A DNA stretch of 64,000 nt, taken from assembly GCA_028707125.1 (NCBI GenBank), contig JAQTUX010000001.1, positions 1,066,438 through 1,130,437 on the forward strand, in the 5' to 3' direction. The DNA comes from Candidatus Omnitrophota bacterium. Its GTDB lineage: Bacteria > Omnitrophota > Gorgyraeia > Gygaellales > JAQTUX01. Of this stretch, positions 1-41,083 are shown one piece after another. The notes under the pieces are model-generated. The model did not search any database. It saw only the letters and a program-made list of their open reading frames with translations, and was not told the origin of the DNA. The position numbers and the translations under genes were made by a program. How positions within the stretch are numbered: position 1 is the stretch's first letter; every line of letters begins with the position of its first letter.

Positions 1-1257
1 AAATTAGATCCGGGAGGAGATACCAGCGAACAGGACAAAGAGAAATCGTTTGCCAGTATCGCCAGGATACAGTTAGATGCAGACCTTACGGACAACGTCG
101 CGACAACCGTGCGTTTACTGAATGAAAGGTATTGGGATAACGAAACGCACAACGGCGCTGGTACTTCTGACGCCTCAACAACTGATATAGCGTTGGATCT
201 AGCGTACGTAACGTTAAAGGAATTTATGGACCTTCCTTTGACATTGTCTGTGGGCCGCCAGGAGATCCATCTTGGCAGCGAAATGATCATGGGTGATGTG
301 GACACAAACAACGCGGTAAGCACAGCCAGCGCGTTCAGCGGCCGCGATCCTGACTTAAGCGCTCGCAAGGCATTTGACGCGATACGCGCTACCTTGGATT
401 ATAACCCGCTGACCGTTGACCTCGTTGTCGCGAAGATAGATGAAAACACCATCGCGGAGAGCGATGATGATGACCTCTATGCCGCTTACGCTAGCTACAA
501 CGTAGGCGATAAATATGACAGCATAGTGGATCTGTATTATTTCTTACAGCGCGAGGCACTTAACCAATTTACAGCTGAGACGGGTTTCAAAAATCGCACT
601 GTGAATGTAATAGGTTCGCGCGTTGTAACCCATCCAATTGAAAACCTGACCTATAGCTTGGAAGGCGCGTATCAGTTTGGCAATTGGCATAACGGCACCG
701 TCAATCATTCAGCCAATCTAAAGGCATGGGCGTTAGAGACAGGGGCTACCTACGTCTGGAAAGACGCGAATTATACCCCTGCCTTGACAATGCTTTATGC
801 TTACTTCAGCGGTGATGACGACGATGCCGCTTTCAGCGATAATGACAGGTATAGGATGTGGCAGCCAATGTATGAAAACCAGAACTTTGGCCATATCGCC
901 GGCGCGTTGTTAGCTCAGCAGAATATTCACATTCTAGGCGGTAAATTGTCTGTGGCGCCGATGGAAGACCTGACCTTAAGCGGTGAATATTATGCCTTCT
1001 GGTGGGCCAAAGCGTATGGTGATAAAGTAGCGGGCGTATCAGACAGCATCGCCGCAACAGCCACAACCAGCACTAGGCTCTATATGACGAATAAGAGTTT
1101 TGCGGCGCAAGAAGTTGATCTTAAAGCCACCTATAATTATACCGAAGATGTTGAATTATCATTATTAGGCGGCGTGCTTGTTCCCGGCGGCTCATTTGAC
1201 AAGGGCAGCGACAGCACAGTAGGAGAATTAATAGCTTCAATGAAAGTAACATTCTAA
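1..1257 (+). CDS. Partial (5'-truncated by window edge) putative outer-membrane beta-barrel protein, alginate-export/porin-like
   Basis: Reading frame is open from nt 1. Alternating hydrophobic beta-strand pattern, Asp/Gly-rich loops, and a C-terminal ...KVTF ending in Phe, as is typical of outer-membrane beta-barrels. Followed by a strong terminator. Confidence 0.4.
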   Translation, partial: KLDPGGDTSEQDKEKSFASIARIQLDADLTDNVATTVRLLNERYWDNETHNGAGTSDASTTDIALDLAYVTLKEFMDLPLTLSVGRQEIHLGSEMIMGDVDTNNAVSTASAFSGRDPDLSARKAFDAIRATLDYNPLTVDLVVAKIDENTIAESDDDDLYAAYASYNVGDKYDSIVDLYYFLQREALNQFTAETGFKNRTVNVIGSRVVTHPIENLTYSLEGAYQFGNWHNGTVNHSANLKAWALETGATYVWKDANYTPALTMLYAYFSGDDDDAAFSDNDRYRMWQPMYENQNFGHIAGALLAQQNIHILGGKLSVAPMEDLTLSGEYYAFWWAKAYGDKVAGVSDSIAATATTSTRLYMTNKSFAAQEVDLKATYNYTEDVELSLLGGVLVPGGSFDKGSDSTVGELIASMKVTF

Positions 1258-1273
1258 CGAATCATATGTAAAC

Positions 1274-1316
1274 AAAAAACCCTCCGGGTTTTCAAAATCC
1301 GGAGGGTTTTTTGTTT
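1274..1316 (+). terminator. Rho-independent terminator (bidirectional A-tract/hairpin/T-tract)
   Basis: aaaaaaCCCTCCGG-gttttcaaaat-CCGGAGGGttttttg: an 8-9 bp GC stem, 11-nt loop, T-run, directly after the stop at 1257. Confidence 0.75.
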
Positions 1317-1397
1317 GTCTGCTCTTTGAGATACGTTCGGCGACGCCTTATCTTACCAAGTCGCCTCAGTATCAACACCGAGATGCATACAAGGGTG

Positions 1398-1426
1398 TTG
1401 ACACATAACCCCTTTTATGATATAAA
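1398..1426 (+). promoter_or_regulatory. Near-consensus sigma70-type promoter (TTGACA-N17-TATAAA)
   Basis: TTGACA at 1398-1403, a 17-nt spacer, TATAAA at 1421-1426. This is ~20 nt upstream of the ATG at 1447, so the 5'UTR would be short or the transcript leaderless. Confidence 0.4.
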
Positions 1427-1446
1427 GATATCAATTATCCAATCTT

Positions 1447-2016
1447 ATGTACGAATATTTAGCCAAGACATATTTCGAACCCGCGGAAAAAACAAAACCA
1501 ACAGGAAAGAGGCGAAGGTTTTTCTTTTTATCGGCGGCTATCCTCCTGGGGCCGGCTTTAATTTTACTTGCCATAGCAGCCAACAGGAATATTCCGGCCC
1601 CGCGGCCGGCTAAAAACTTTAACCTTGTGCTCATACCGGACTCAATAAAATTAAACTACAATTTCAACGTTGCCGGCAAGATCGAAAGCTTTGACTATGG
1701 CTTGAACAATTTAAACGCGGGTGAATTTGATTTCATTCAATTCAACGTAAAGAAGTCGGATTACAACAACAGTGTCAACCTGAGGGTGGAGGTCATAAAT
1801 ACTTTAAAGGAAAGGTCTGAAATATATATAAGCGGCGTACCATCCCGATGGAAAACGGTATCACTGCCGTTGAGGTCTTTTAATAAGATAACCGACTGGG
1901 GGAGCCTGAGCAACTTGATATTCTCAATTGAAGAATGGAATGTATTAAAAAAACAGGGGCAGGTCTATATAGATGACGTCAAACTCACAAAAGGCAAGGG
2001 AGGGGGAGAAATTTGA
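1447..2016 (+). CDS. Hypothetical membrane-anchored protein (N-terminal TM, possible carbohydrate-binding beta-sandwich)
   Basis: 189-aa ORF with an N-terminal hydrophobic helix (FFFLSAAILLGPALILLAIAA). Its stop overlaps the ParA start (ATGA), suggesting co-translation with the downstream ATPase. Confidence 0.4.
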   Translation: MYEYLAKTYFEPAEKTKPTGKRRRFFFLSAAILLGPALILLAIAANRNIPAPRPAKNFNLVLIPDSIKLNYNFNVAGKIESFDYGLNNLNAGEFDFIQFNVKKSDYNNSVNLRVEVINTLKERSEIYISGVPSRWKTVSLPLRSFNKITDWGSLSNLIFSIEEWNVLKKQGQVYIDDVKLTKGKGGGEI

Positions 2017-3089
2017 TGCGTATAATATCTATATCCAACCAGAAGGGAGGCTGCGGTAAAACGACCACGGCGGTAAACCTGGCCGCGTCTTTGGCGCAGA
2101 ACGGCAAGCGCATACTGCTTATAGACCTTGACCCGCAGGCGCACGCCACATCAGGGCTCAACATCAATAACGAATTAAGCGTGTATAATGTGCTCTCAAA
2201 GATAGCCAATAAGAAGGCGCGTTTTGAGGATATCATCGTAAAGGTATCCAACCTTTTTGACCTGGCCCCTTCAAATATGTTATTGGGCACCCTCGAGCAG
2301 GAACTGGCTGATGAAATCGGCAGGGAATCGCGCCTCTTTGACTGCCTCAAGAAAGTCACCCACGGTTATGACTATGTGCTTATTGACTGCCCTCCCAACC
2401 TGGGAATACTCACGATCAACGCCATAAGGGCGAGTGAAAAGATCATCATACCCGTTGAGGCAAGCCGCTTTTCGCTGGAAGGCCTCAACCACCTGATCAA
2501 GATCATAAACCTTGTAAATGAGCGCCTGGAGCACAATGTAACGTTTTCCGTGCTGGTCACCATATTTGATTCGCGCCTGAGGCACTCCTTCCAGATGCTT
2601 AACAGGATAAGAAGCCAATTCAAAAAAAGCATGTTCAATACCATCGTACACACAAACGTAAAGCTCAAAGAATCTCAGGCGGAGGGCAAACATATATTTG
2701 ACTACGACAAGTATTCGCGCGGGGCCAAGGACTATTTCAGCCTTTCGCGGGAGATCATAAGCATAGAAGAATCGGCAGGCCAGGGGATACGGGAGAAAGA
2801 CGCCGCTGAAGAGATACCTCTTGCCGGGCCCAGGAAAGCCACGTTTCTCCTGCGCGCGCCGGAAGCAAAGGTGGTCAACGTAGTGGGCGACTTCAATAAC
2901 TGGCTCATAGACGACAACAGTAAATTGTTTAAAAGAGGCGACGTCTGGGAAAGGAACTTCTATATTAAGCCGGGAAACTACAAATACAGATTCGTAGTTG
3001 ACGGTAAAAGATGGCTGGAAGACCCTGAGAACCCCCAGACCCTGGTCAATCCCTTTGGAGAACTGGATTCCATATTAAAACATGAATAA
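2013..3089 (+). CDS. ParA/MinD-family P-loop ATPase with C-terminal CBM48/AMPK-beta-type glycogen-binding domain
   Basis: Deviant Walker A KGGCGKTT at the N-terminus, as in ParA/Soj. The C-terminal ~90 aa read GDFNNW...YKYRFVVDGKRWLEDPEN, which is characteristic of the CBM48/E-set glycogen-binding fold. Confidence 0.75.
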   Translation: MMRIISISNQKGGCGKTTTAVNLAASLAQNGKRILLIDLDPQAHATSGLNINNELSVYNVLSKIANKKARFEDIIVKVSNLFDLAPSNMLLGTLEQELADEIGRESRLFDCLKKVTHGYDYVLIDCPPNLGILTINAIRASEKIIIPVEASRFSLEGLNHLIKIINLVNERLEHNVTFSVLVTIFDSRLRHSFQMLNRIRSQFKKSMFNTIVHTNVKLKESQAEGKHIFDYDKYSRGAKDYFSLSREIISIEESAGQGIREKDAAEEIPLAGPRKATFLLRAPEAKVVNVVGDFNNWLIDDNSKLFKRGDVWERNFYIKPGNYKYRFVVDGKRWLEDPENPQTLVNPFGELDSILKHE

Positions 3090-3402
3090 AGGCGGCGGCA
3101 ACATAAAGCAAGACAGGATATTCGCCCTGTTATCGTATCTCTGGATATTATGCATAGTGCCTCTTCTGCTTGAAAAGGAGGACAGATTTGTGCTGGGGCA
3201 CGCGAAGCAGGGGCTGGTACTGTTTATTGCCGAGACCATCGCCTTCATACTCAAGATCTTTCCCTTTTTCAGCCAACACATCTGGAATATGTGCCTGATG
3301 ATCTTCACTGCCGTATCTCTGTACGGCATCTTTGCCGCCTTATCCGGCAGGCCTGCCAGGATAGCGATCGTATCCGGCCTGGCAGAAAAAATACATATTT
3401 AA
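3082..3402 (+). CDS. Small integral membrane protein (DUF4870-like)
   Basis: 106 aa with hydrophobic helices and a GHAKQG motif reminiscent of DUF4870 small membrane proteins. Confidence 0.35.
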   Translation: MNKGGGNIKQDRIFALLSYLWILCIVPLLLEKEDRFVLGHAKQGLVLFIAETIAFILKIFPFFSQHIWNMCLMIFTAVSLYGIFAALSGRPARIAIVSGLAEKIHI

Positions 3403-3417
3403 CCAGGGAGGGGTATA

Positions 3418-3794
3418 TGGCGGTCAAAAGAAAACCATCCGGAAAAAAAGGGGTAAAGGCCCGGAAGCCCCGCGGACAAAAGAAGCCCGTCAAGAAGGCC
3501 GTAAGGAAACCAACGAAAAGGACACCGGCTAGAAAAAAGCTAAAGATCGAAGGTGATCTCATAGGTAAAGTCACTCACTACTTTCCGCACGTGAACGCCG
3601 CCGTATTAAAACTGTTAAAGCCGCTTTCAGTAGGAGATACCATTAAGATAAAGGGCCATACCACCGATTTTACTCAGGCCGTTGAAACCATGCAGATAGA
3701 CCACGCGCCTCAACAGTCGGCTGGAAAAGGCGATGAGATCGGGTTAGGCGTGCGGCAAAGAGTCAGGAGAAAAGACAAGGTATATAAAATATAA
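3418..3794 (+). CDS. Lysine-rich histone H1-like protein with C-terminal beta-barrel-like domain
   Basis: ATG at 3418 is preceded by AGGGAGGGG. The N-terminal 60 aa are K/R/P-rich (KKGVKARKPRGQKKPVKKAVRKPTKR). The longer six-frame ORF from 3291 is rejected as the start because it lacks an RBS. Confidence 0.45.
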
Positions 3795-3803
3795 GGGAGA
3801 ACC

Positions 3804-3989
3804 ATGAAATACACCTGCCAGATATGCAACAGAGAGATAAGCGATAAGATCGGCCTTACGCACATTAAGGCCGAAGAGTATATACTGGATCTGATCAAGA
3901 AAGACCATCCTGAGTGGAATCATAAAAAAGACATATGCAAGAAGTGCGTTGACTACTACCGTAACCTGATCAAGAAGGCGAAGATATAA
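3804..3989 (+). CDS. Small zinc-ribbon protein
   Basis: 61 aa with CxxC...CxxC (CQICN...CKKCVDYY). RBS GGGAGAAC upstream. Confidence 0.4.
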   Translation: MKYTCQICNREISDKIGLTHIKAEEYILDLIKKDHPEWNHKKDICKKCVDYYRNLIKKAKI

Positions 3990-4001
3990 TTCAATATACA
4001 G

Positions 4002-6008
4002 ATGCAGCGAACCCGGACCTCAGAGTTTCTATCTCTGGTTGAGGTAGAAAACTACGAAGATATTTACAGCAAAGACATCCAGGACGGCCTGTATTTCGGC
4101 ATGCCGCTGGAATGCGTCATTGAAACAGAAAAACGCCTTCGCTCCAGTCCCGAACGCTCCATCGCCTATTTTTCAATGGAGTACGGCTTGGGCTCGAGTT
4201 TCTATAACTCATTTAAAACCGCCCGCGGCATACACCCTAATAACAGCAACCAGGAACATGAGGTCTTTTCAAATTTCAGGCTGGCCGACTACTTCTTTAC
4301 CTTCCAGATAGAAAGCATAATGGACCTTCCTCTGTATAGCGGCGGCCTGGGCGTGCTCGCGGGGGATACCCTGAAAACAATGGCGGACTACAAACTCCCC
4401 GTAGTCGCGCTGGGAATGCTCTGGAACACCGGCTACTTCAGGCAGAGATTCTGGTTCAAATACGGACAAATGCCTGAGGCAATACACTGGGACCCTGCTT
4501 CTTATCCCGGGCTCATACCGCTTAAGAACAGGGTGAAGATCAAGCTTAAATCGGAAACCATAGAGTTAAAGCTATGGAAATACTACTGTTACAGCTACAG
4601 ACATGATTATGCCATACCTTTAATACTGTTGGATTCCTGCCTGGAATCAAATACGGAAAAACTCAAATGCCTTACAGACCAGCTCTACAGAAGCGATGAT
4701 GTATGGATTAAAATAATGCAGCGGGTGATCCTGGGCATGGGCGGTGTGGCGGCGTTAGAAGAACTGGGATACAACATTGGCACATACCATATGAATGAAG
4801 GCCATGCCGTATTCGCGTTTTTGGCCAAGGCAAGAGGGCTGGGAGACAAAGACATTGAGGGCCTCAAACAACACTTTGCTTATACCTGCCATACTCCGGT
4901 TGAGGCCGGGCATGACAGATTCTCCACAGGCGACCTCGGCAGGATACTGCCCAAAGAAGATATGGAAATAGCGCAAGAATTCGGCAGGGAGGGCGAAGGC
5001 GCCGTAAACCTGACGTTATTGGCGATGAACGTCTCATCCAGAATAAATGCCGTATCAAAGGCGCATCAGAAAGTAACGCACCTGCAGTTTCCCGCGTACC
5101 GGGATACGATAGGGTTTGTGACAAACGGCGTGCACACGCACACCTGGATATCGGACAGTTTTATGCAGCTATTTGAGGATTTTCGCGATACCTTCGGCGA
5201 CATAAAGGCCAACCCCATGGCTTTAGCCAAGGCAAGCGATCTGAGAAAAGAACCCGGATTCAGGGAGGCGTTATGGCAGGCGCATCAAGTCAATAAATCG
5301 CGGCTCTGCGGGATGCTCTACAAATGGGGCTTGAATAAAGACCTCTTTACCATATGCTGGGCGCGCAGGGTAGCCGCGTATAAAAGGCCGAGCATGATAC
5401 TGCAGGATGTAAACCGCCTGCTTGAGATCGCCGGGAAATACGGCCCGATCCAGATAATCTTTGCCGGTAAAGCGCACCCAATGGACAATATGGGATTTAC
5501 CTATATAAATGAGATGCTGGATAAGGTAGACGGGCTCAACGAAGAATACGACATGCTTAAGATCATAATGCTGGAAAACTACGAGACATTCCTGGCAAAG
5601 ACGCTTACCTCAGGGGTAGACGTATGGCTCAACAACCCTCTCCCGCCGTTTGAGGCATCCGGCACAAGCGGTATGAAAGCGATCTTGAACGGCGTAATAC
5701 AGATGACTACGCTGGACGGCTGGGTAGTAGAAGCGGAAGATAAAGGCATAGGGAAGATCTTCGGCTACAGGAACAAAGAAGGCCATATAGGCGGCGAGCA
5801 TAACCTCCATATGGAAGACGACGCCCGCCAGCTATATAAAGCGCTTGAGGAAACAGTCGCTTTATATTACCGGACTAACGCGCAAGGCAAAGTTGACGCC
5901 TCTTCTCCCTGGATAGACATGATGATAAACTGCATAGCCGCGGGAGCCGATTTCAATACCTACAGGATGCTTGATGAGTATAAAGAGAAAATATGGCAGA
6001 TCAAGTGA
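4002..6008 (+). CDS. glgP: Alpha-glucan (glycogen/maltodextrin) phosphorylase, GT35 family
   Basis: 668 aa with GGLGVLAGD and the PLP-lysine motif EASGTSGMK, the signature of the alpha-glucan phosphorylase family. Confidence 0.8.
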   Translation: MQRTRTSEFLSLVEVENYEDIYSKDIQDGLYFGMPLECVIETEKRLRSSPERSIAYFSMEYGLGSSFYNSFKTARGIHPNNSNQEHEVFSNFRLADYFFTFQIESIMDLPLYSGGLGVLAGDTLKTMADYKLPVVALGMLWNTGYFRQRFWFKYGQMPEAIHWDPASYPGLIPLKNRVKIKLKSETIELKLWKYYCYSYRHDYAIPLILLDSCLESNTEKLKCLTDQLYRSDDVWIKIMQRVILGMGGVAALEELGYNIGTYHMNEGHAVFAFLAKARGLGDKDIEGLKQHFAYTCHTPVEAGHDRFSTGDLGRILPKEDMEIAQEFGREGEGAVNLTLLAMNVSSRINAVSKAHQKVTHLQFPAYRDTIGFVTNGVHTHTWISDSFMQLFEDFRDTFGDIKANPMALAKASDLRKEPGFREALWQAHQVNKSRLCGMLYKWGLNKDLFTICWARRVAAYKRPSMILQDVNRLLEIAGKYGPIQIIFAGKAHPMDNMGFTYINEMLDKVDGLNEEYDMLKIIMLENYETFLAKTLTSGVDVWLNNPLPPFEASGTSGMKAILNGVIQMTTLDGWVVEAEDKGIGKIFGYRNKEGHIGGEHNLHMEDDARQLYKALEETVALYYRTNAQGKVDASSPWIDMMINCIAAGADFNTYRMLDEYKEKIWQIK

Positions 6009-6061
6009 GGACATAAGTTATGGAGCCCCATAACTGGCGTGCTCATTGAAAGGAGGGATGT

Positions 6062-6364
6062 ATGGCGGCAAAAGGAAAGAAGGGGGGATCCAAGATATCC
6101 AAAGACCTGTCCAATCTCTGGAAAGACGTCCGCAGGGAATTCAACGCCTTATCAGGCAAGGCGAACAGATTAATGGCAAGGGGTGAGAAATACCTTAAAC
6201 GCGTGCCTGCCGAAGCCAGGGAAAAGTCGGATGCGCTGGTCATGAGGGCAAAGCGCGAACAACTGTACTATAATTTAGGTAAGGCGGTAGCGAACAGGGA
6301 TACGCGTAAAATAATGCTCCTGCGCAACAAGATATCTACGCTTAGCAGGAAAATCAACGTATAA
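6062..6364 (+). CDS. Hypothetical coiled-coil basic protein
   Basis: 100 aa, RBS AAAGGAGGG, charged helical sequence; no recognisable domain. Confidence 0.35.
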   Translation: MAAKGKKGGSKISKDLSNLWKDVRREFNALSGKANRLMARGEKYLKRVPAEAREKSDALVMRAKREQLYYNLGKAVANRDTRKIMLLRNKISTLSRKINV

Positions 6365-6373
6365 CAGCGCTCT

Positions 6374-6712
6374 ATGCGCCTATATGATAAAGACCTGAGG
6401 GTAGAGTTCTATAAAAGCGGCGGCCCCGGCGGCCAGCATAAGAATAAAAGGCAAACAGCAGTAAGGATAACCCATCTGCCGACCGGGATCTCCGCGGTTG
6501 CCGCGGAAGAACGCTCTCAAGCGCAAAACAGGAATATGGCAATCGCGCGCCTGAGAGGCAAATTAAAGGCGCTGATATCAAAAAGAAAGCCCAGAATACC
6601 CACCAGGACACCGGCTGCCGTAAAACAAAGGGTAAAACAGAGAAAGATCCTGAGGTCTGAAAAGAAAAAATCCAGGGCAAAGGTAGTTATTTCTGGTCCC
6701 TACTCAGAATAA
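6374..6712 (+). CDS. arfB: ArfB-like peptidyl-tRNA hydrolase (stand-alone RF-1 GGQ domain protein)
   Basis: [25 protein letters not shown] is the GGQ catalytic motif of class-I release-factor domains. A basic C-terminal tail follows, as in ArfB/YaeJ. Confidence 0.7.
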
Positions 6713-6754
6713 ATACAGGGTTATTTTGAGTAGGGACTCATAATAAACCACTCG

Positions 6755-6780
6755 TTAAATATAAGTAAGTTTGAGTAAAT
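6755..6780. repeat. Left copy of 26-nt inverted repeat (TTAAATATAAGTAAGTTTGAGTAAAT) flanking the DUF134 gene
   Basis: Its reverse complement matches 7330-7355 at 22/26, including a perfect 15-mer TTAAATATAAGTAAG. Confidence 0.6.
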
Positions 6781-7150
6781 GGACCCGCGCGGAAGGCCTA
6801 AAAAGTATAAAATAGTGCGAAATGACCCCCATATCTGGCGCTTCAGCCCCAGAGGAAAGGCAGGGAGGCCGGAAGAGATCGACCTTAAGATCGAAGAATT
6901 TGAGGCATTCCGGCTGTCTGATAATGACGGCCTTAAACAGGCCCAGGCAGCCGAATTAATGCGCATATCCCAGCAAACCTTCAGCCGGCTTCTTAAGAAG
7001 GCAAGGACAACCCTGGCAGACGCCCTTGTAAACGGCAAGATAATCAAAATACAGGGTGGCTGCTATGTATTAAGTACCCGCCAGAACAATAACCACAACA
7101 ATCACGAGAAGCACGAAGCACCCAGGACCCAAGACAGAATCCCAGAATAA
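6779..7150 (+). CDS. DUF134/UPF0251 family predicted DNA-binding protein (sigma-70 region-4-like HTH)
   Basis: An N-terminal PRGRPKK... motif, then the LSDNDGLKQAQAAELMRISQQTFSRLLKKARTTLADALVNGKIIKIQGG pattern typical of DUF134. Confidence 0.65.
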   Translation: MDPRGRPKKYKIVRNDPHIWRFSPRGKAGRPEEIDLKIEEFEAFRLSDNDGLKQAQAAELMRISQQTFSRLLKKARTTLADALVNGKIIKIQGGCYVLSTRQNNNHNNHEKHEAPRTQDRIPE

Positions 7151-7329
7151 CGCTTACCACGCCGGCTCAAACCTCCGGGAGTCCCTTAGAAACCCCTCAA
7201 TTCAGCATACCCCAACTTCCTATAATATATCTTATGTTAACTTGAGCCAGCAACAAAAACATAATCTAACTAATTGTGCAATAAAGAGTTAGATATAATA
7301 AGTTTTTTCCTGTGGATAACGAATATTTC

Positions 7330-7439
7330 ATTTACTTTGACTTACTTATATTTAACTGGGGATAGATTAACCTGTTCTACTCTAATGGCTTATAAGTAAG
7401 GCGAGGATTTACTTATATTTACGCTGACTTACTTTACCC
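7330..7439. repeat. Right IR copy plus additional direct/inverted copies of the ACTTATATTTA / GACTTAC motif
   Basis: ATTTACTTTGACTTACTTATATTTAA at 7330-7355, TATAAGTAAG at 7391-7400, ATTTACTTATATTTA at 7407-7421, GACTTACTTTACCC at 7426-7439. All lie in a 300-bp AT-rich spacer. Confidence 0.55.
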
Positions 7440-7457
7440 GAAGTTCCTTAGATTTGA

Positions 7458-8303
7458 TTAGGTTGCGGAGAGTTCCCGCAGAAAAATACCGGCCCTTTCG
7501 GAAAACCTGTTTGCGGGATAATTACTGAGTATTTGGCGGTATAACAACCGCGCTTTCTCATTTCTGCCGTAAAGATGGTAATTTCTGGCCTTATAGAGCA
7601 TTCTGGCGGCCGGATCCTTGATCTTTGGCGCTGTCATGCCCAAATAGGCGTCCTGGTACACGACGGCAAACGCCCTGCCGAATATCCGGGCATATTTATT
7701 CGCGATCAAGTCAAAAAGGTGCTTTTCAGAGAGAAAATCATCGGAACGCACCGGCGCGTGCCGGATGGGATAAAGATACGCGGGAGAACCTGTCTCAGCG
7801 GTGATCTCTTCTAATGTAACTGCCTCCCCCCTATCGTTACGGTAAATAAGGTTGTGCAGCGGGTCAACAACCCCCCATTTACCTCTATAATATACTTCGG
7901 CTACTGTGTGGGGTGAGCTTGACACATCATCATTCACCATAAGGAACGCGTAGCGGCCGGATATGCCTTTCGCGGCCAGCAGCTTGCATAAAACCTTTGC
8001 CTGATAATCGCACCACCCCACCCCCTCTACCAGATAGTCAAAGGGCTTCCCCGCGTATGGCCTGCTATCGCTGAAATAATGTCCCAGGCGCGACCTCGTA
8101 TAATCAACGGCGGACTGAATCGTGCCCTCCAATGAAGCTGATGACGGCAGTTCCTTCATTGCTATTACCTGAAATGAAACCTCGTGGTAGGCATGCCTGC
8201 CCAGGGAAGAATTCGCGAACAATAAAGAAATCAGCGGCGACAAGAGTATTACTGACGCCGCCGCTATAAGGAAAATGGTGAAAATTCTCAATAAAACGCG
8301 CAT
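7458..8303 (-). CDS. Transglutaminase-like cysteine protease domain protein, membrane-anchored
   Basis: N-terminal TM helix, GVGWCDYQAKV (Cys core of the transglutaminase-like fold), and a C-terminal TPR-like segment. Confidence 0.55.
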   Translation of the reverse strand: MRVLLRIFTIFLIAAASVILLSPLISLLFANSSLGRHAYHEVSFQVIAMKELPSSASLEGTIQSAVDYTRSRLGHYFSDSRPYAGKPFDYLVEGVGWCDYQAKVLCKLLAAKGISGRYAFLMVNDDVSSSPHTVAEVYYRGKWGVVDPLHNLIYRNDRGEAVTLEEITAETGSPAYLYPIRHAPVRSDDFLSEKHLFDLIANKYARIFGRAFAVVYQDAYLGMTAPKIKDPAARMLYKARNYHLYGRNEKARLLYRQILSNYPANRFSERAGIFLRELSAT

Positions 8304-8305
8304 GC

Positions 8306-10180
8306 CTACTTGACCTGTTTAGTTGAAGCCGACCGTATCAGCCGACAGACCACCGCCTTTTCTTTCTTTCTCAGGCCGGTAAACTCGACGCCTACCATAT
8401 TATTCCTTACCCATGCCACCCTTACGGGCAAATAAAGATATTCCTTTGACCCGGGCGCTTTCAGGCCTATCTTAAGCTGCTTCTTCATTCCAAGATCAAA
8501 AGCGCTTCTGCCGGCCAGGCGCAGCCCGCCTTCGGATATGTCTACCGTGTAAGCCGAGACCCTGTCCTCATAGGGGATGATCTTTATACTGGACCTGTAA
8601 TTAAACCTCTTGAATTTCCTTACCTCAAGGCCCAGGCGCATGCTCATAATGTGTAAACATGAGATCTGCCTGACAGCAGGGCTGTCTGTATCTGAAGGAG
8701 TTGAGATCTGTATGTTTATAAAAAAGTTCTTAAGCCGGTATGACTCTAATAACCGCTTGATCTCCAGATTAAGCAAAGTATGCATGCCGCTTATTTTCGC
8801 CTCGGTCGCCTGGGGCGCTATAATGCTGAATTCAGCTCCGGGGCCTTCGTGGCTGAACACCGGGCATTGCAATTTGCCCAAAACAGCGTCAAGTTTCCGC
8901 GTGAACTCCCGGGAGGGGGCCTTTATCCTTTTCAGGAATTTACCGTAGTTAACTATGGCCAGGTGGATCAGATAAAACTGCTCGTTTTTTTCCAGCAAGC
9001 CGTTTATGTTCTCCCTCATTTGTCCAGGGAGCGGGCTTGCGCTGTAAAACAGCGGTAGCGTAAAATAGAACTTACTGCCTACGCCTAACCGGGATTCTAT
9101 CTCTATTTCTCCCCCGTGCCTCTGCACCAGTTCCTTTACTATATAAAGCCCCAGCCCTACGCCTTTTTTCTCTGAGGCAGGTGTCCGGGATACCTGCACG
9201 AACTTCGCGCACAGCCGGGGTATATCCTGCTCGGCAATGCCTACACCCGTATCCAGCACCCCTACTCTGACCCTTGCCTGCAGCAGTTCCACCTCTACGC
9301 TTACCCTCCCCCCTTCTTCCGTGAACTTTATCGCGTTGTTAATAAGGTTGGATAGGGCCTGGTTGACCCTTTCGGCGTCAATAAACAGGTTTATCTGCCC
9401 GGCAGGGATGTTATAACGCAGGGTTATCTTTTTCTGCCGCGCTAATTTCCGGAAATGCGCCGAACTATCATTGATTATGCCGCATAGATCAGCCAGCGAA
9501 TAATGCAGGGAAAACGCCCCTCTTTCAATCCTGGAGATATCAAGCAGCTCGCTTATGATCTTGTTCAACCGCTCTATATTATTCCTGCCGGTAGTAAGGA
9601 TATCCCTCTGCTTATCGTTGAGTATGCCCCCGACATTATCCAGGATAAGCATTACCGATTCCTTGATGATCGCTAAGGGTGTCCTGAGCTCATGAGAAAC
9701 GGCGGAGACAAATTCCGATTTCATCCTGTTCATTTCCTCTAACGACTCAAGGCGCTTCTCAATCTGTTCCTTCTCTTTCTGCAGGCGTTCCAGGTGGAAA
9801 CGCCGAGTTATATCCCTGGTGATACCCATAAGGCCGATGATATTGCCTTTCTCGTCATGCCTGGGTATCTTGGTGGTGGAGACATAATTGTCAATGCCGT
9901 CAGGCCTCGTTGACCTCTCGATCTTGTCAATGATGGGCTTGCCTGTGCTCATCACATATTCATCGTCCCTGGCCATTATCTCGGCGCGTTCCTTCGGGAA
10001 AAAATCAAAGTCGGTCTTGCCGGCGACTTCATCCGGCTTAAGCCCCAGGCCCTTGGCGTGGGCTTCGTTCACCAGGATAAGCCGCCCCTTTCTGTCTTTA
10101 ATATAGACGACGTCGGGAATATGATTTATAAGTTCCAAAAGGATGCTCTCGTGATACCTGTCGGTTTTCGCCTTCATCAA
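8306..10180 (-). CDS. PAS sensor histidine kinase with C-terminal PilZ domain
   Basis: PAS region, HisKA H-box SHELRTPL, HATPase_c G-boxes (DTGVGI, GVGLGL). At the C-terminus, RFNYR...VDISEGGLRL gives the PilZ RxxxR and DxSxxG motifs. Confidence 0.7.
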   Translation of the reverse strand: MMKAKTDRYHESILLELINHIPDVVYIKDRKGRLILVNEAHAKGLGLKPDEVAGKTDFDFFPKERAEIMARDDEYVMSTGKPIIDKIERSTRPDGIDNYVSTTKIPRHDEKGNIIGLMGITRDITRRFHLERLQKEKEQIEKRLESLEEMNRMKSEFVSAVSHELRTPLAIIKESVMLILDNVGGILNDKQRDILTTGRNNIERLNKIISELLDISRIERGAFSLHYSLADLCGIINDSSAHFRKLARQKKITLRYNIPAGQINLFIDAERVNQALSNLINNAIKFTEEGGRVSVEVELLQARVRVGVLDTGVGIAEQDIPRLCAKFVQVSRTPASEKKGVGLGLYIVKELVQRHGGEIEIESRLGVGSKFYFTLPLFYSASPLPGQMRENINGLLEKNEQFYLIHLAIVNYGKFLKRIKAPSREFTRKLDAVLGKLQCPVFSHEGPGAEFSIIAPQATEAKISGMHTLLNLEIKRLLESYRLKNFFINIQISTPSDTDSPAVRQISCLHIMSMRLGLEVRKFKRFNYRSSIKIIPYEDRVSAYTVDISEGGLRLAGRSAFDLGMKKQLKIGLKAPGSKEYLYLPVRVAWVRNNMVGVEFTGLRKKEKAVVCRLIRSASTKQVK

Positions 10181-15501: not shown

Positions 15502-17619
15502 TTAGAATAACCTCTTGCCTTTTGACTTTTCTTCGCGCAAGCCCGTCTGCTTCAGTTCCTCATCGGTAATATCTTTGGCAACCGGCAATTCTATAAACAA
15601 TGCTGCCCCCTTGTTCTCTCCTTCTGACTCTGCCCAAATTCTGCCCTTATGCCGGTCTATTATCTTCTTTGCGTTATACAGACCCATGCCCGTGCCTTCT
15701 GTCGAGGCCTTTGTAGTAGTAAAGGATGAGAAAATTATGGGTAATATGTGTTTCTTAATGCCGTAGCCGGTATCCAAAAAGGATATTTTTATTGTATCAC
15801 GGTCGGCTAATTCTGCCCTGATATTAATCGTTTTCTCTTTGGCGTATTTCATCGCATGCATCGCGTTATTGGCAAATATCACCAATACCTGCATAAGTTC
15901 TGCCTTCTCTCCGCGCACGTAAGGCAGGTCATCCGTTATATCCTGCGTAAGGCGGATATTCTCAACCTTCAACTGCGGGGCCATAAGATACTGGAAGCTG
16001 GTTATCACGTCTTCTATCTTTAGGGGAGCGAGTTTCCCGGTTGAGACCTGGCCGAATTCCCTTATAGCCTTAACCATCTTTGACACGCGCTCTGCCGCCT
16101 CCTTCATAAGATACAGGGACCTGCCCATCTCTTCCCTTTCCTCTTTAGGCAGCCGGCCCTCCTCCATCAGGGAATCCTCCATAAATGCCACATGCCCCCT
16201 TATGACCTGCATAGGATTGTCTATCTCATGGGCCAAGGAATACGAGTAGGTATCCATTTCTTGAAGCCGCGCCTTGCGCTGCCTGTCCTCTATTTCCCTC
16301 CAGAAGATACAGTTCTCAATGGCCAAAGACATTGAATAGGAAAGCGTCTCAAACACGAGCATATCATCGGTAGTATACATCTGGCCTCTGTGTTTTGGGC
16401 CCAGCACAAGGAAGCCCAATAAATTGTCTTCCATAAAACAGGGAATCAGCAGGCCGAAATTAAGGGAAAGGTCCTCCACAGCGCCTATTTCTTCCTGCAG
16501 CAGCGGCCTCTTCTGCCTGCCAAGCTCACCCACCAGGCCTGAATCCACGGATACGAATTCCTTCAATCCCAGCCCTTCGCCTCCGCGATGGCAGCACTTG
16601 AGATGATAGCTGTTATGCAGCTCATCTTTCAGATATACAGCAGCGTAGGGGATCTTAACGGTATCCACAACGGTTGAAACAATGGTATTAAGCAATTTAT
16701 CCAGGTCCCTGATTCTGGTCATTGTCTCAGAGAGTTTGCGAAGGGCGTTTTGATACTTCCTCTGTTCTTTTAAGATAGCGTTTTCCGCCCGCCGGCGCAG
16801 GTAGGCGTAGATAAACGGGCCGGAGGTAGCAAGCAAAACTGCCAAAGTGGTAGAGAATAGCCATGACTTTGTAGTATATCCAAGCCAGAAAGGAACTCCC
16901 AAGACTAAAGCATAGACAATAGCAAATATACTGGCGCGGGTAACAATAATACGCACATCAAGAAAGCGATAGCGAATAATAGAATAGGTAGCAATAATAC
17001 AATATGCTGAGATAGCAAAATTACTATAAGGATAGATTCTAGACCCAAAAGCCGGCAAGAAATTTATTGCTCCACCGATAAATCCGATTGCTGTTGAAAG
17101 TAATAAATAAAGAAGCTGATTTCTTTTAATTCCGCGAGACTGTCGATATGATTTGAAAAGATTGTAGTAAGCATAACCTAATATTAACATCCAGGTTAAA
17201 TAAAGAAGCGGATACGCTGATCCTGTGGCAACCGGGTAATAAAAAGATCTGAACATAAATTCCAATTTGGTAAAAAATCCGGCAATGGTAGCGGCCGCTG
17301 CCAGCAAACATAATACATACGCAGCAATAAGAATGTTTTTAGAGCGAAGTCCGCATAAAACATAAACAACATGGAAGAATAAAACAGAAGTAAATATAAC
17401 TCCTGCCAGACCAAACTTAAAGAAAGTTACCGCTAACGCTTCTGTCCTCGTCTGGGTTACTAAAAATCCTCCTATTCCCCATATAAGGACTGCGGTATTA
17501 AACAAAATCCACAACCAATGAAGAAATGATCTCTTGCTATAAATCAAAACAATAGCAATCACACCAACACAGGCAACAATGAGTAATAAACAGGATATCG
17601 AAAAAGGATTGAATATCAT
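15502..17619 (-). CDS. Sensor histidine kinase with N-terminal 7TM (7TMR-DISM-like) region and GAF domain
   Basis: ~7 hydrophobic helices, a GAF-like middle, H-box LAHEIDNPMQ, and HATPase_c motifs (DTGYGI, GTGMGL). Confidence 0.75.
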   Translation of the reverse strand: MIFNPFSISCLLLIVACVGVIAIVLIYSKRSFLHWLWILFNTAVLIWGIGGFLVTQTRTEALAVTFFKFGLAGVIFTSVLFFHVVYVLCGLRSKNILIAAYVLCLLAAAATIAGFFTKLEFMFRSFYYPVATGSAYPLLYLTWMLILGYAYYNLFKSYRQSRGIKRNQLLYLLLSTAIGFIGGAINFLPAFGSRIYPYSNFAISAYCIIATYSIIRYRFLDVRIIVTRASIFAIVYALVLGVPFWLGYTTKSWLFSTTLAVLLATSGPFIYAYLRRRAENAILKEQRKYQNALRKLSETMTRIRDLDKLLNTIVSTVVDTVKIPYAAVYLKDELHNSYHLKCCHRGGEGLGLKEFVSVDSGLVGELGRQKRPLLQEEIGAVEDLSLNFGLLIPCFMEDNLLGFLVLGPKHRGQMYTTDDMLVFETLSYSMSLAIENCIFWREIEDRQRKARLQEMDTYSYSLAHEIDNPMQVIRGHVAFMEDSLMEEGRLPKEEREEMGRSLYLMKEAAERVSKMVKAIREFGQVSTGKLAPLKIEDVITSFQYLMAPQLKVENIRLTQDITDDLPYVRGEKAELMQVLVIFANNAMHAMKYAKEKTINIRAELADRDTIKISFLDTGYGIKKHILPIIFSSFTTTKASTEGTGMGLYNAKKIIDRHKGRIWAESEGENKGAALFIELPVAKDITDEELKQTGLREEKSKGKRLF

Positions 17620-19133
17620 ATTATTTTAAACTTTCTTTTTAAGATCTGATTTGCTACCCGCTCTCCACCCAATATTACGCCTGTGATGCCTCCTCCAAGC
17701 TGTGTCCATGCGCTGGATAAGTAAACATTATCAATCGGAGTTCTTGTTTTGAAACGACTTAGCCCGCTTTGAGAGACGATTCTGCTCCACCCATATAATG
17801 CCCCTTTATAATTGCCGGTATATCTTTCCATTGTAAGCGGCGTTGCAATAGACATTTCTTCAATATATGAAGATAAATCGGGTATAATCTTCTCTGTTCT
17901 CTTAATTAAAATGTCTGCCAATCGTCGTTTTTCTTCTCTGTACTGTTCCTTTGATAATTTTTTCCAAAAGTCATATCCCGCAAGCGTAATAATACCCATT
18001 ATAAATTTACCGGTCGGAGCAATATCCGGCTGGAGATTAGAGTATAAAGTTATGACATATGGAACAGTGTCCATTTTGTTATCTTCTATATCCTTGTATT
18101 GAGTATCTAAATCATAGCTTGGGTTATAAAATATTTCATAATCTGTAAAACCTTTATTTCTTAAATCTACATTCAAACCTAAATAAATCTGAAAAGCAGA
18201 AATGGATGGCTCCATACCACCGATTCTTTTTATGGTTCTTTCAGGAAGATATTCTTTACCGATTAAGTTAAAAAATGTTTTAGTTGAGTCAACATTTGAA
18301 ATGATTATATCTCCGAAAAATTCTTCCTTATCCTTCGCCCTGACTCCTTGGGCGACATTATCTCTTAGAAGTATCTTTTCTGCCTCTTTGTTTAAAATTA
18401 TCCTGCCGCCTTCCTCTTTAATTGCTTCGCAAAGACCGTTTGAAAGAGATTGACTCCCGTTCTTAATATAGCATCCGCCATTATGCAAATAATCATGCCA
18501 GGCATAAGCTAAATAGAAAGACGGCAGCATGCTCGGCGGCAAACCAACATATTCCCAAAGTTGTGAAACCACGGCCTTCAAACGGCTATCCCTTAAAAAA
18601 TTATCTAATAATTTCTGAAATGGCTTATTTGCATAGAGGAATAATTTTGGAAATTTTATGGGAAAATAAAGCATTTCAATGCTGGGAGGAAGATCGTTAG
18701 CATATAGAAATTTCACCACCTCATGATATATTTTGGATATTTCATTGGATAATTTTCTTAGACCGATATGCTCTGAAGGGAATGCCTTTATTAAGTCATT
18801 TAAATATTGCTGGGGATTATTCTGGGATATCCGTAAGTCAAAATCAGGGAATATTGAACGATAAAGATACGCCGATTTTAGGAAGCTGATTTTACCTATA
18901 ACGCCACATCTCTTAAGTACTTTATAGGTAGCACCCTCTTTATCACAGCCACAAATCAAATGTAGCGATGCATCAAATTTAAAATCACCCCTTCTAAAAT
19001 CCGCCGCATACCCACCGGCAACCGGGTTTTTCTCAAGCACGAGCACTTTCCTGCCGCTTTTTGCAAGCAGGGCAGCGGCAGTGAGACCGCCTATGCCTGC
19101 GCCTATGACGATGACGTCATACTTATTTTTCAT
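17616..19133 (-). CDS. FAD-dependent oxidoreductase, phytoene-desaturase (CrtI/CrtD) family
   Basis: N-terminal Rossmann VIVIGAGIGGLTAAALLAKSG...VLEKN; 505 aa. Confidence 0.65.
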   Translation of the reverse strand: MKNKYDVIVIGAGIGGLTAAALLAKSGRKVLVLEKNPVAGGYAADFRRGDFKFDASLHLICGCDKEGATYKVLKRCGVIGKISFLKSAYLYRSIFPDFDLRISQNNPQQYLNDLIKAFPSEHIGLRKLSNEISKIYHEVVKFLYANDLPPSIEMLYFPIKFPKLFLYANKPFQKLLDNFLRDSRLKAVVSQLWEYVGLPPSMLPSFYLAYAWHDYLHNGGCYIKNGSQSLSNGLCEAIKEEGGRIILNKEAEKILLRDNVAQGVRAKDKEEFFGDIIISNVDSTKTFFNLIGKEYLPERTIKRIGGMEPSISAFQIYLGLNVDLRNKGFTDYEIFYNPSYDLDTQYKDIEDNKMDTVPYVITLYSNLQPDIAPTGKFIMGIITLAGYDFWKKLSKEQYREEKRRLADILIKRTEKIIPDLSSYIEEMSIATPLTMERYTGNYKGALYGWSRIVSQSGLSRFKTRTPIDNVYLSSAWTQLGGGITGVILGGERVANQILKRKFKII

Positions 19134-19816
19134 TCCTTCTTTGGTTTAACTGCAAACGCGCCGCTGGTTTTAGCCACTACCGTATCCCCTACCATTGCTA
19201 TTGTCTCTATTATGCCGCTGGTATCAAGGATTTTTACGCTCTTGGCCTCTATAGTAAGTGTGTCACCGGGATACACAGGAGAAAGGAGCTCTGTATTGAC
19301 CTTTACCAGATAGTAATCAGGATGGGTATTTGCGATTTGTGGTTTTGCAGTGTAGTAAAGTATGAGGGATGCCTGGGCCATTGCCTCAATAATCAATGCG
19401 CCCGGCATTATGGGCTTGTTGGGGAAGTGGCCTTCAAAGTATTTTTCTTTTGGATCAATATATTTTTTAGCCACGATGCGCCTGCCTTCGTCTATCTCAA
19501 CAACCTCATCAATAAACAGAAACGGCTCTCTGTGGGGCAGTATGCTTTTGATTTTCTCTTTATCCATCCTGCCATACCCTGATTGCTTTAGGTTCCTGGC
19601 GAGTTCAATTACTTTATTCAGAGTTCTGGCCTTTGGGATTTCTGTTTCCGGCACAGTTATCTTAAATCTCCTCTCCAGCGCCGCGACTATCTCAAGACCC
19701 TTCATTGAGTCAACCTCAAGGTCGGCAAAATCCTTGTCGGGATCAATTTTATCTGCAGGAATCTCAATAATCTCTGATACAAGTTCGGCTATTTCGTTTT
19801 CAAATTTAGCAGGCAT
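19130..19816 (-). CDS. Acyl carrier protein fused to FabZ/FabA-type 3-hydroxyacyl-ACP dehydratase (hotdog)
   Basis: The N-terminal 80 aa are an ACP fold with the Ser attachment motif LEVDSM. The C-terminus has the HxxxGxxxxP dehydratase motif EGHFPNKPIMPG. Confidence 0.6.
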   Translation of the reverse strand: MPAKFENEIAELVSEIIEIPADKIDPDKDFADLEVDSMKGLEIVAALERRFKITVPETEIPKARTLNKVIELARNLKQSGYGRMDKEKIKSILPHREPFLFIDEVVEIDEGRRIVAKKYIDPKEKYFEGHFPNKPIMPGALIIEAMAQASLILYYTAKPQIANTHPDYYLVKVNTELLSPVYPGDTLTIEAKSVKILDTSGIIETIAMVGDTVVAKTSGAFAVKPKKE

Positions 19817-20963: not shown

Positions 20964-24020
<3,057 letters not shown>

Positions 24021-24046
24021 ATCAATTAAGCATTTTACAACAAATA

Positions 24047-25864: not shown

Positions 25865-25890
25865 AATCTCCCTCCATCCTTATACAGATC

Positions 25891-25933
25891 ACCCTTATCT
25901 TTCCTGACATCAGCTTTAGCAAAAGAGAATCGC
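25891..25933 (-). repeat. 43-nt duplicate of hsdS 3' end (remnant encoding ..DSLLLKLMSGKIRV..)
   Basis: 39/43 nt identical to 26934-26976, which is inside the hsdS C-terminus (..DSLLPRLMSGKIRV). This is a direct repeat bracketing ORF 25955-26911. Confidence 0.65.
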
Positions 25934-25954
25934 ACGCCTAAACAACTTTATTGA

Positions 25955-26911: not shown

Positions 26912-26912
26912 A

Positions 26913-28115: not shown

Positions 28116-28657
28116 CTGTTATTTTCTAAAAATATGTCCATTAGTTCTTTTAAGGTTTTATATCCATACTCCACAGCAAACCGATCCCTTTCACGCTCTG
28201 GGTCTTTTGTACCGTGAAATAAATTATTTCTGATACTGCACCAAAATTCAACCATGTTCCCCCAATCACTGAGCGAATGAATAACCCCCTTTATTTCTTG
28301 TCGCTCTTCCGGAGACATCTCATCAAGGTTATTTTTTGAGCAATTCCACCACTTTATTTCTTCTACAGAATTGAGGTCCCGAGAAGCATTGCCGAGCCTC
28401 AGTTTATCTAGTTCTTGCTTAATATGCTCCCAATCCTTTCTCAGAAACTTTCTTGATTTTATGCGTTCTAAATATTTCTTTCTTATATCTTTAGCTTGCT
28501 TAAGCTTTTGAATAGCTTGCCTGTCTGAATCATTGCTTAAATATTTTTGAGTCTTCAAATATGCAATAAATGCTAGATATTCAAATACAAATTTAGAAAA
28601 ATAGTCTTCTTCACTTGCTTTCGCATGCCAATTCTTTATTAATTGCTCATAGCTCAT
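28112..28657 (-). CDS. HEPN-like protein inserted between hsdM and hsdS
   Basis: 181 aa with the C-terminal motif [12 protein letters not shown] (Rx4H with RN..H). Its start overlaps the hsdM stop and its stop overlaps the hsdS start. Confidence 0.4.
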
Positions 28658-30230: not shown

Positions 30231-30265
30231 TATCGCTTCCTCCCTATGACCGCCAAACTTAAAAG

Positions 30266-41069: not shown

Positions 41070-41083
41070 AGAACTTTTTTCAA

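Follow-up and report, generated by a model that had tools for sequence, protein, structure and literature searches.

The DNA analysed here is a stretch of 64 kb (the window) from the genome of a Candidatus Omnitrophota bacterium, and the analysis mainly concerns the + strand of its positions 1-7150; all coordinates are positions in the window. This part holds an operon that runs from a gene we call orfU to a glycogen phosphorylase gene (glgP), and its second gene (2016-3089) encodes, in one continuous frame, a Soj/ParA ATPase, a disordered linker and a C-terminal carbohydrate-binding module (CBM) of the CBM48/AMPK-beta type. A preliminary description of the locus had claimed such a fusion and had suggested that it belongs to a system for the positioning of glycogen granules. 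In the numbering of the open reading frame (ORF) list, which is used for the fusion throughout, residues 2-256 span 2016-2780, and the protein is divided as follows.

2016-2780, + strand: ParA/Soj-type ATPase domain (residues 2-256), assigned by AAA_31, homology to Soj and Foldseek
2781-2828, + strand: acidic disordered linker (residues 257-272), with a predicted local distance difference test score (pLDDT) below 50 for residues 257-269
2829-3089, + strand: CBM48/AMPK-beta-type module and stop codon (residues 273-358), assigned by AMPK1_CBM and CBM_48

Both halves are recognised by Pfam above the curated cut-offs. AAA_31 (E 2e-56) and CbiA (71 bits) match the ATPase at residues 2-227, and residues 274-342 are matched by AMPK1_CBM (PF16561, 32.8 against a cut-off of 26.8) as well as CBM_48 (PF02922, 25.1 against 22.4). 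AMPK1_CBM is present in each of the best 120 relatives listed (59-98% identity), all of which span 99% or more of the query, and the named ones among them are Omnitrophota. Among one-genome-per-species contigs, near-full-length matches at 33-47% identity were also obtained from metagenome-assembled genomes (MAGs) of many other lineages, labelled Myxococcota, 'Deltaproteobacteria', Phycisphaerae, Sedimentisphaerales, Tepidisphaerales, Pirellulales, Eisenbacteria, Krumholzibacteriia, Gemmatimonadales, Rokubacteria, Margulisbacteria, Acidobacteriota, Auribacter, Thermodesulfobacteriota, Bacteriovoracaceae and Gammaproteobacteria. Of 85 related ParA ORFs (the window's own and 84 from the fetched loci), which carry about 12 phylum-level labels, 80 were recognised by a family hidden Markov model of the C-terminal module. 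These ORFs are 340-554 amino acids (aa) long and their linkers vary in length; in the databases the relatives of the fusion are named 'AAA family ATPase' or 'chromosome partitioning protein' only.

The possibility that an assembly or gene-calling artefact has joined two genes is practically negligible. It is contradicted by the continuous reading frame, by at least 120 full-length relatives and by the recurrence of the module in nearly all related ParA ORFs, and an assembly error was rejected because two independent assemblies of data from the SRA contain the identical operon with the same gene calls. Neither a one-off fusion nor a stop between the two domains in related genomes, both of which would have spoken against the fusion, was found, and this central claim of the preliminary description is therefore borne out.

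A search of 1.84 billion representatives with residues 200-358 returned a list that was swamped by proteins in which the same CBM is repeated in tandem 3-18 times. Public metagenomes contain such tandem arrays of AMPK-type CBMs in numerous uncharacterised proteins, for instance P0140 (1812 aa, 18 matched stretches), P0141, P0146 and a large number of about 480 aa that have 4 stretches.

In the AlphaFold2 (AF2) model, residues 270-358 form eight strands in an all-beta arrangement with pLDDT above 90. A Foldseek search with the whole chain was dominated by ParA; the E-set/beta-sandwich fold is implied by full-domain homology at E 1e-16. When a profile built from 24 diverse CBMs of the fusions was compared with the PDB, the best match was the CBM of AMPK beta1 (E 4.6e-16; AMPK beta1/beta2 range 5e-16 to 2e-14), followed by pullulanase, the glucan phosphatases SEX4 and LSF1 and the CBM48 domains of GlgB, and nearly every match was a starch- or glycogen-binding module. 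The glucan contacts of rat AMPK beta1, which we take to be W100, K126, W133 and N150 (Polekhina et al. 2005), were located by alignment to AMPK beta2 and counted in 78 distinct fusions.

W100 of AMPK beta1: W297 in the fusion, kept in 78 of 78
K126 of AMPK beta1: R/K326 in the fusion, kept in 72 of 78
W133 of AMPK beta1: W334 in the fusion, kept in 78 of 78
N150 of AMPK beta1: N/D352 in the fusion, kept in 74 of 78

The conservation of these residues over about 12 phyla argues that the module still binds alpha-glucan. The assignment of the C-terminal domain to CBM48 thus held up, and it can be specified as a genuine module of the CBM48/AMPK-beta type.

The closest solved relatives of the ATPase half are ParA 8ray (E 8e-55) and Soj from T. 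thermophilus (1wcv, E 1e-43). The AF2 model of the fusion has a mean pLDDT of 82, and its top Foldseek matches are Soj/ParA proteins with template modelling scores of 0.87-0.90 (target-normalised) and 36-42% identity. Ten residues, K11, G12, G13, K16, T17, D38, D40, D125, R188 and K217, are invariant in 46 aligned members, and they include the deviant Walker A motif K11-GGCGK16-T with its signature lysine, the Walker A' residues D38/D40 and D125 of Walker B. R188 and K217 fall on the arginines of the Soj motifs 'DxR' and 'NVRL', which in B. subtilis Soj are R189 and R218, two residues that bind DNA; this correspondence was checked for position. Judged by these residues, the ATPase half has everything that an ATP-dependent, dimerising, DNA-binding ParA requires. 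A C-terminal amphipathic membrane helix of the MinD type is not present, the C-terminus being acidic linker and beta-sandwich, and MinD models score far below cut-off on the fusion.

A canonical chromosomal ParABS system was considered and rejected since no ParB is adjacent. No ParBc domain was found among the genes of the window, the recorded Pfam matches of neighbouring genes or the top 25 families listed from 149 neighbours of loci L024-L061 (related loci are numbered where they have to be told apart). Nor was a second ParA found elsewhere in the window, and parB and glgA/B/C were not found among its 30 largest ORFs.

The operon and its surroundings contain the following features.

109-1257, + strand: Alginate_exp porin gene, truncated by the start of the window; upstream neighbour of the operon
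1269-1317, + strand: strong hairpin with U-run, terminator of the porin gene (dG -32.8 kcal/mol, z -8.9, 0 of 200 shuffles as stable)
1398-1426, + strand: promoter-like TTGACA-17-TATAAA, 21 bases 5' of orfU, the operon's first gene; a consensus match alone
1447-2016, + strand: orfU, candidate partner, 189 aa, with N-terminal peptide, K/R patch, one transmembrane helix and jelly-roll
2013/2016-3089, + strand: ParA-CBM48 fusion, 357-358 aa, starting at ATG 2016 or TTG 2013
3082-3402, + strand: predicted membrane protein with three helices, DUF4870/MamF_MmsF type, 106 aa, overlapping the stop codon of ParA-CBM48
3417-3794, + strand: lysine-rich protein, 125 aa, with a K/R/P/A-rich tail (about 45 aa) and an 80-aa beta-barrel resembling EF-Tu domain 2
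3804-3989, + strand: CxxC...CxxC protein, 61 aa, also present in 7 related loci
4002-6008, + strand: GT35 alpha-glucan phosphorylase, 668 aa, 13 bases 3' of the CxxC gene
6062-6364, + strand: coiled-coil-like ORF, unnamed, 100 aa, co-directional with the operon
6374-6712, + strand: RF-1-domain (ArfB-like) protein, 112 aa, co-directional with the operon
6779-7150, + strand: DUF134 protein, 123 aa, co-directional with the operon

The predicted hairpin at 1269-1317 separates the porin gene from the operon, and the TTGACA-17-TATAAA element is the sole match in the 64 kb, where 0.06 would be expected. Because a terminator hairpin and this lone promoter-like match lie between the porin gene and orfU, the operon in the source genome probably begins at orfU. 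From orfU to glgP all intergenic gaps are at most 14 bases unless the genes overlap, and the three genes in 6062-7150 possibly belong to the same transcript. According to the preliminary description the upstream ORF overlaps the fusion gene by ATGA, which is not the case: the junction reads TTGATG, and the stop codon of orfU (TGA, 2014-2016) makes the two genes overlap by one base if the fusion starts at the ATG (2016) and by four if it starts at the TTG (2013). Together with the Shine-Dalgarno sequence GGGAGGGGGAG at 1998-2008, ahead of the ParA-CBM48 start, this junction has the form of translational coupling. A scan with Rfam gave no match within or near the operon. Two small genes inside it, 3082-3402 and 3804-3989, go beyond the preliminary description. 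The stand-alone RF-1 (GGQ) protein at 6374-6712 stays below the NCBIfam cut-offs and recurs downstream in L001 and L006.

The product of orfU is 100% identical to the NCBI entry 'hypothetical protein PHR44_05350 [Candidatus Omnitrophica bacterium]'. Its homologues have little sequence in common beyond the motif (I)Y(E)xLAK(T/I)Y(F/L) at the N-terminus and one tryptophan of the C-terminal domain; L5, A6, Y9 and W135 are invariant in the family, and the peptide of the window reads YEYLAKTYF (residues 1-25 are MYEYLAKTYFEPAEKTKPTGKRRRF). Word-indexed searches yielded only 3 and then 19 relatives, and outside the N-terminal motif the family changes rapidly. Behind the motif come a K/R-rich patch, a single hydrophobic helix (about residues 25-46; 30-46 in the AF2 model) and some 130 residues of beta structure, which are modelled as a jelly-roll (about 57-182, mostly pLDDT above 90). 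In Foldseek searches this jelly-roll matched CBM11 (6r31, E 1.9e-6) and then CBM30 and CBM28 (to 3e-4), with template modelling scores of about 0.5, and Pfam gave CBM_11 with 17.7 bits, below the cut-off of 27, so that the predicted domain resembles the CBM11 type at the level of the fold and not as a member of the family. Since K and R are in excess before the helix, the N-terminus is predicted to be cytoplasmic and the jelly-roll periplasmic; the partner in Omnitrophota would hence be a membrane-anchored protein whose CBM-like domain faces the periplasm.

In other phyla the gene directly 3' of ParA-CBM48 opens with a related peptide, e.g. KLGRGLSDVSHIFLSG, MPRDLADVLHYFMPEL, RDLSEISHLFLSS or KRGLESVCHFFLSA, and the N-terminal motif of these downstream partners can be written 'LGRGLxD(V/I)SHxFLS'. 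The sequence 'LGRGL' is the hallmark of the N-terminus by which ParB activates ParA. A strict pattern of the motif, derived from the same loci on which it was counted, matches 38 of 186 adjacent co-directional ORFs compared with 11 of 2822 other ORFs; a conserved N-terminal motif in the adjacent gene is found in at least 37 of 84 loci by the strict pattern, and in more by eye. The body behind the peptide varies outside Omnitrophota: 9 loci have a MinD-like domain whose P-loop is degenerate, while elsewhere the body is unrelated and the proteins have 100-670 aa. The MinD-like downstream protein of Myxococcota, Thermodesulfobacteriota and other MAGs looks like a pseudo-ATPase partner of the ParA; MinD-like proteins with a degenerate or absent P-loop and the 'LGRGLxD(V/I)SHxFLS' start are located, among others, at 3339-4277 in L029, 10998-11996 in L031, 4476-5462 in L037 and 11089-11949 in L041.

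Close ParA relatives that have no CBM (L057, L073 and L074, to which L061 may be added) have the same kind of partner; a ParA with a peptide-bearing partner, onto which a CBM48 has been grafted, is thus the description that suits the system best. In general, the partners of ParA/MinD ATPases act via a positively charged, disordered N-terminus (PMC10241942). The idea of the preliminary description that the cargo adaptor is built into the ATPase holds insofar as the CBM48 is part of the fusion, but it is too simple because a conserved candidate partner with a ParB-like peptide is encoded nearby in many loci.

The lysine-rich protein belongs to a family with a K/R/P/A-rich tail of 40-90 residues and a conserved domain of 80 residues, and 19 of 21 Omnitrophota loci have its gene 3' of the fusion. 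PF03144 (EF-Tu domain 2) matched the domain in 14 of the 16 members, though below its cut-off (best E 1.3e-6), and in the PDB the domain matched domain 2 of SelB/EF1A (E 7e-4). In the preliminary description this protein was called histone-like, which suits the H1-like composition of the tail but not the fold, which is like EF-Tu domain 2; neither a HU/IHF nor a histone domain was found with Pfam and NCBIfam, which gave no match. PhaF/PhaM (on polyhydroxybutyrate, PHB) and AlgP (on polyphosphate) couple granules to the nucleoid via histone-H1-like tails (PMC13052382, PMC9239181), and by analogy the lysine-rich tail resembles theirs.

Genes of the DUF4870/MamF_MmsF type stand at position +1 of the fusion in 13 Omnitrophota loci. 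PF09685 is recorded for the homologue of the 106-aa protein in L001 and is 'faint' in others, and the copy of the window has no Pfam match. A magnetosome link through MamF_MmsF was rejected, as the matches are faint, the window copy has none and the family is one of generic small membrane proteins.

In the main Omnitrophota clade (L001-L022, 49-77% identity) the gene order is porin, (GH57), orfU, ParA-CBM48, (106-aa membrane protein) and lysine-rich protein. Among these loci orfU was counted in 21, the lysine-rich gene in 19, the porin in 15 and both the 106-aa membrane protein and GH57 in 13. GH57 was recorded 23-35 bases 5' of orfU in the 13 loci; in the two that were checked for spacing the distance is about 35 (L002) and about 70 bases (L004). 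The sub-clade of the window (window, L001, L087 and L088) has no GH57 at this place and instead has the GT35 phosphorylase downstream. The glycogen phosphorylase that the preliminary description had placed in the operon is therefore indeed there (TIGR02094 399.6 bits against a cut-off of 191.7; PF00343 Phosphorylase 125 bits, E 3.5e-36), but its linkage to the fusion in this form is a trait of the sub-clade; most relatives have GH57 in its stead or lack glycogen genes altogether.

Altogether four arrangements with genes of alpha-glucan metabolism were found, namely with GH57 upstream, with GT35 downstream, with MalQ, a GH57-like protein and GlgP, and with a GH57 branching enzyme together with a free CBM48. 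The third is seen in L071 (Omnitrophica RBG_13_46_9, 39% identity), where the fusion adjoins MalQ, a GH57-like protein of 815 aa, GlgP (1197 bits) and a GT4, and the fourth in L037 (Thermodesulfobacteriota, 42%), where it lies 2 kb from a free CBM48 protein of 101 aa, a GH57 branching enzyme (E 5e-100) and a GlgA-like GT4. In L041 a GH57 branching enzyme is 9.5 kb off. The linkage to alpha-glucan genes is thus real but limited to certain lineages; Omnitrophota MAGs are reported to encode the synthesis of glycogen (PMC8542988).

In L037 the free-standing CBM48 gene is placed right beside the gene for the GH57 glycogen branching enzyme (6337-8256, - strand). The GH57 protein 5' of orfU (5908-7371 in L002 and homologues in 13 Omnitrophota loci) has 487-523 aa and no NCBIfam match, and it is left unmatched even by two models of GH57 branching enzymes which match the enzyme of L037 strongly.

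Elsewhere in the window, a defence island at 20964-32455 comprises a type I restriction-modification system (hsdR 20964-24020, hsdS 26913-28115, hsdM 28647-30230) in which hsdR and hsdS are separated by genes for an abortive-infection protein of the AIPR type (24047-25864) and for the HEPN protein AbiU2 (25955-26911); next to hsdM come a protein with PLD nuclease and helix-turn-helix domains (30370-31554) and an AAA_22 ATPase (31643-32455). On the - strand, a PAS-HisKA-HATPase histidine kinase at 8306-10180 has a C-terminal PilZ domain, suggesting that it reads c-di-GMP directly. A row of genes at 15502-19816 on the same strand encodes a histidine kinase with seven transmembrane helices and GAF, an amine-oxidase-like flavoprotein, and a single polypeptide that combines a PP-binding acyl carrier with a FabA-like dehydratase. 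Also on the - strand are an ORF of 544 aa (38797-40431) with no Pfam match at E 1e-5 and a tRNA-Gly(CCC) (41084-41154) which is situated 4 bases downstream from thiC and runs into the first codons of the next listed ORF (40428-41108), so that the true start of this ORF must be further in.

Taken together, we give nearly even chances to the reading that ParA-CBM48 is an ATP-switched tether which couples glycogen to the nucleoid under the control of its partner. In such a system the CBM48 would keep the ATPase on glycogen particles, and the ATP-bound ParA domains would dimerise and bind nucleoid DNA non-specifically, so that the DNA-bound dimers would tether the glycogen and spread it over the chromosome, and both daughters would inherit it. 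The ParB-like N-terminal peptide of the partner would bind the ParA dimer and bring about ATP hydrolysis and release, which would make the system a cycle and not a static glue. In Omnitrophota, where orfU would sit in the inner membrane, release or capture would take place at the envelope and could set the place of glycogen relative to membrane and nucleoid. The lysine-rich protein would likely be a second binder of a polyanion (DNA) in the manner of PhaF/PhaM/AlgP, and GH57 or GT35 would be co-transcribed since they act on the same polymer. A tether-and-release cycle seems more plausible than a travelling gradient because, unlike in the ratchets of McdAB and ParABS, the ATPase itself carries the cargo module. 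More tentatively, we suggest that ParA-CBM48 and its partner form a widespread, unrecognised class of ParA/MinD systems which actively distributes glycogen in bacterial cells, the lineages concerned being Omnitrophota, Planctomycetota, Myxococcota, Gemmatimonadota, Acidobacteriota, some Gammaproteobacteria and others. The positioning of glycogen granules is here something we infer, and the computed data fit positioning, sensing and membrane anchoring alike.

Several points weigh against a dedicated system for the distribution of glycogen. Outside the main Omnitrophota clade an alpha-glucan enzyme lies within 10 kb in just 3 of 61 loci, and the neighbours of the distant loci are heterogeneous. 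A Pfam census of 149 of them (L024-L061) has no dominant theme and did not find a general enrichment of glycogen genes, its recurrent families being ECF sigma factors, a second ParA-like protein, MerR and flavin reductase. Within Omnitrophota, the synteny is partly mere shared ancestry, because housekeeping genes upstream are conserved as well. The roughly 50-fold enrichment of the partner motif is inflated, as the pattern was derived from the loci on which it was counted. In the classical ratchet ParA is on the nucleoid and the partner on the cargo, from which a ParA fixed to its cargo departs, and the folded domain of the partner, predicted to be extracytoplasmic, is more in keeping with a role centred on the membrane than with one centred on the nucleoid. 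Finally, bacterial glycogen can localise without any ParA, as in E. coli (PMC12706056).

One of the other explanations, to which we would grant a modest chance, is that the protein is a glycogen sensor comparable to AMPK, in which the CBM48 reports the state of the store to a ParA switch with another job, e.g. chromosome segregation or the placement of the division site or of a polar complex, and which thus ties the cell cycle to the carbon reserves. It would account for the closest solved relatives of the module being the regulatory CBMs of AMPK beta, for the identity of about 40-45% between the ATPase and chromosomal Soj/ParA, and for the fact that most loci of other phyla have no glycogen genes nearby, while the shared partner of the CBM-less relatives points to a core switch that exists independently of the CBM. 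A sensor of this kind is harder to reconcile with the tight operon coupling to GH57 or GT35 in Omnitrophota; moreover, an adjacent partner of the ParB/parS type was not seen in any locus examined, and no other cargo was identified. The last-named scarcity of glycogen genes in distant loci would equally suit a generic E-set/Ig-like module for protein interactions which has lost glucan binding and whose proximity to glycogen genes is a coincidence of synteny, and CBM48-like folds are indeed known from non-glucan settings, a ferulic acid esterase being among the profile matches. This explanation as a whole is nevertheless improbable, and a CBM that does not bind glucan seems unlikely, in view of the two tryptophans kept in every fusion and the basic and Asn/Asp positions kept in nearly all of them across phyla, of four independent types of linkage to alpha-glucan enzymes and of the exchange of GH57 for GT35 in the same operon.

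The predicted membrane topology of the partner brings up a role as an envelope landmark similar to HubP or BcsQ: orfU would mark an envelope site by means of its periplasmic CBM11/30-like domain and recruit ParA-CBM48 by its cytoplasmic peptide, and glycogen, or a route for the uptake or export of alpha-glucan, would be held at the membrane or the pole and not at the nucleoid. The positive-inside rule places the N-terminus of orfU inside, its single helix is followed by a confident jelly-roll of the carbohydrate-binding type, a second small membrane protein is encoded 3' of the ATPase, an Alginate_exp outer-membrane porin is found upstream in 15 Omnitrophota loci, and BcsQ-type proteins are among the ParA matches. 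Yet we see only a small chance for it, given that the porin gene of the window, set off by a terminator and a promoter-like site, is probably a separate transcription unit, that the operon has no transporter, synthase or secretion gene, and that the partner in other phyla is soluble (a MinD-like pseudo-ATPase or other protein). The invariance of the Soj DNA-binding equivalents and the lack of a MinD-type C-terminal membrane helix also speak against it.

Compared with known systems, the ATPase is most similar to Soj/ParA of chromosomal ParABS (1wcv, H. pylori Soj 6iub/8jmj, 8ray), to which it is about 40-45% identical over 250 residues and with which it shares the fold, the signature lysine of a deviant Walker A motif, the equivalents of the DNA-binding arginines and, in many relatives of the fusion, the 'LGRGL'-type partner peptide. 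It differs in having no adjacent ParB (ParBc/HTH) gene or parS context and in the addition of a CBM48 on a flexible linker, and the body of the partner is a membrane-anchored jelly-roll or a MinD-like pseudo-ATPase. HubP is a membrane-anchored polar hub for ParA-like ATPases with an extracytoplasmic domain of the glycan-binding type; orfU, however, has the inverse topology and no homology to it. BcsQ, which serves the localisation of cellulose synthase, is a ParA/MinD-family ATPase linked to polysaccharide biology, but bcs genes are not present here and the identity of the fusion to BcsQ is 16-18%. With the CBM of AMPK beta (1z0m, 1z0n, 2f15), its best solved relative, the module has the Trp/Trp/Lys/Asn contact positions in common, and in both cases the CBM is part of a nucleotide-dependent regulator and not of a glycoside hydrolase, although the host is here a ParA ATPase instead of a kinase scaffold. 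McdA/McdB resembles the present system as an orphan ParA-type ATPase for a metabolic, non-DNA cargo which is encoded beside the cargo genes and has a partner with a disordered, charged N-terminus (PMC10241942, PMC13052382). McdB is however a separate cargo adaptor whereas the cargo-binding module is here fused to the ATPase, McdA has low similarity to the fusion (E 1e-14, about 21% identity), and the cargo would be a polysaccharide and not a protein shell. PhaF/PhaM and AlgP have in common with the operon's 125-aa protein a lysine-rich tail, which in their case binds DNA, but those systems do not include a ParA ATPase (PMC13052382), and the tail belongs here to a separate protein with an EF-Tu-domain-2-like barrel.

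A full-text literature search found no paper that links a ParA/MinD ATPase to glycogen, and glycogen is not mentioned in a 2025 review on organelle positioning or in a 2023 study on multi-cargo ParA/MinD systems (PMC13052382, PMC10241942). ParA and CBM48 are well-known families, while their combination, its spread and the partner are undescribed in the literature searched.

The family provides a cloneable candidate with predictable point mutants (W297, W334, K11, K16, D40, R188 and K217), a predicted partner peptide and orthologues in many phyla, by which active positioning or sensing of bacterial glycogen becomes directly testable. ParA/MinD ATPases are the general means by which bacteria place large cargos such as carboxysomes, chemoreceptor arrays and flagella, and each newly assigned cargo has opened a line of work. 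Glycogen is the commonest carbon store of bacteria, and we know of no dedicated organiser for it. If the proposed reading is true, a storage polysaccharide would for the first time have been given an active positioning machinery, and no ParA before ParA-CBM48 would have had its cargo-binding module inside the ATPase itself; as a ParA fixed to its cargo, it would be a natural case that bears on the tether and ratchet models of ParA action.

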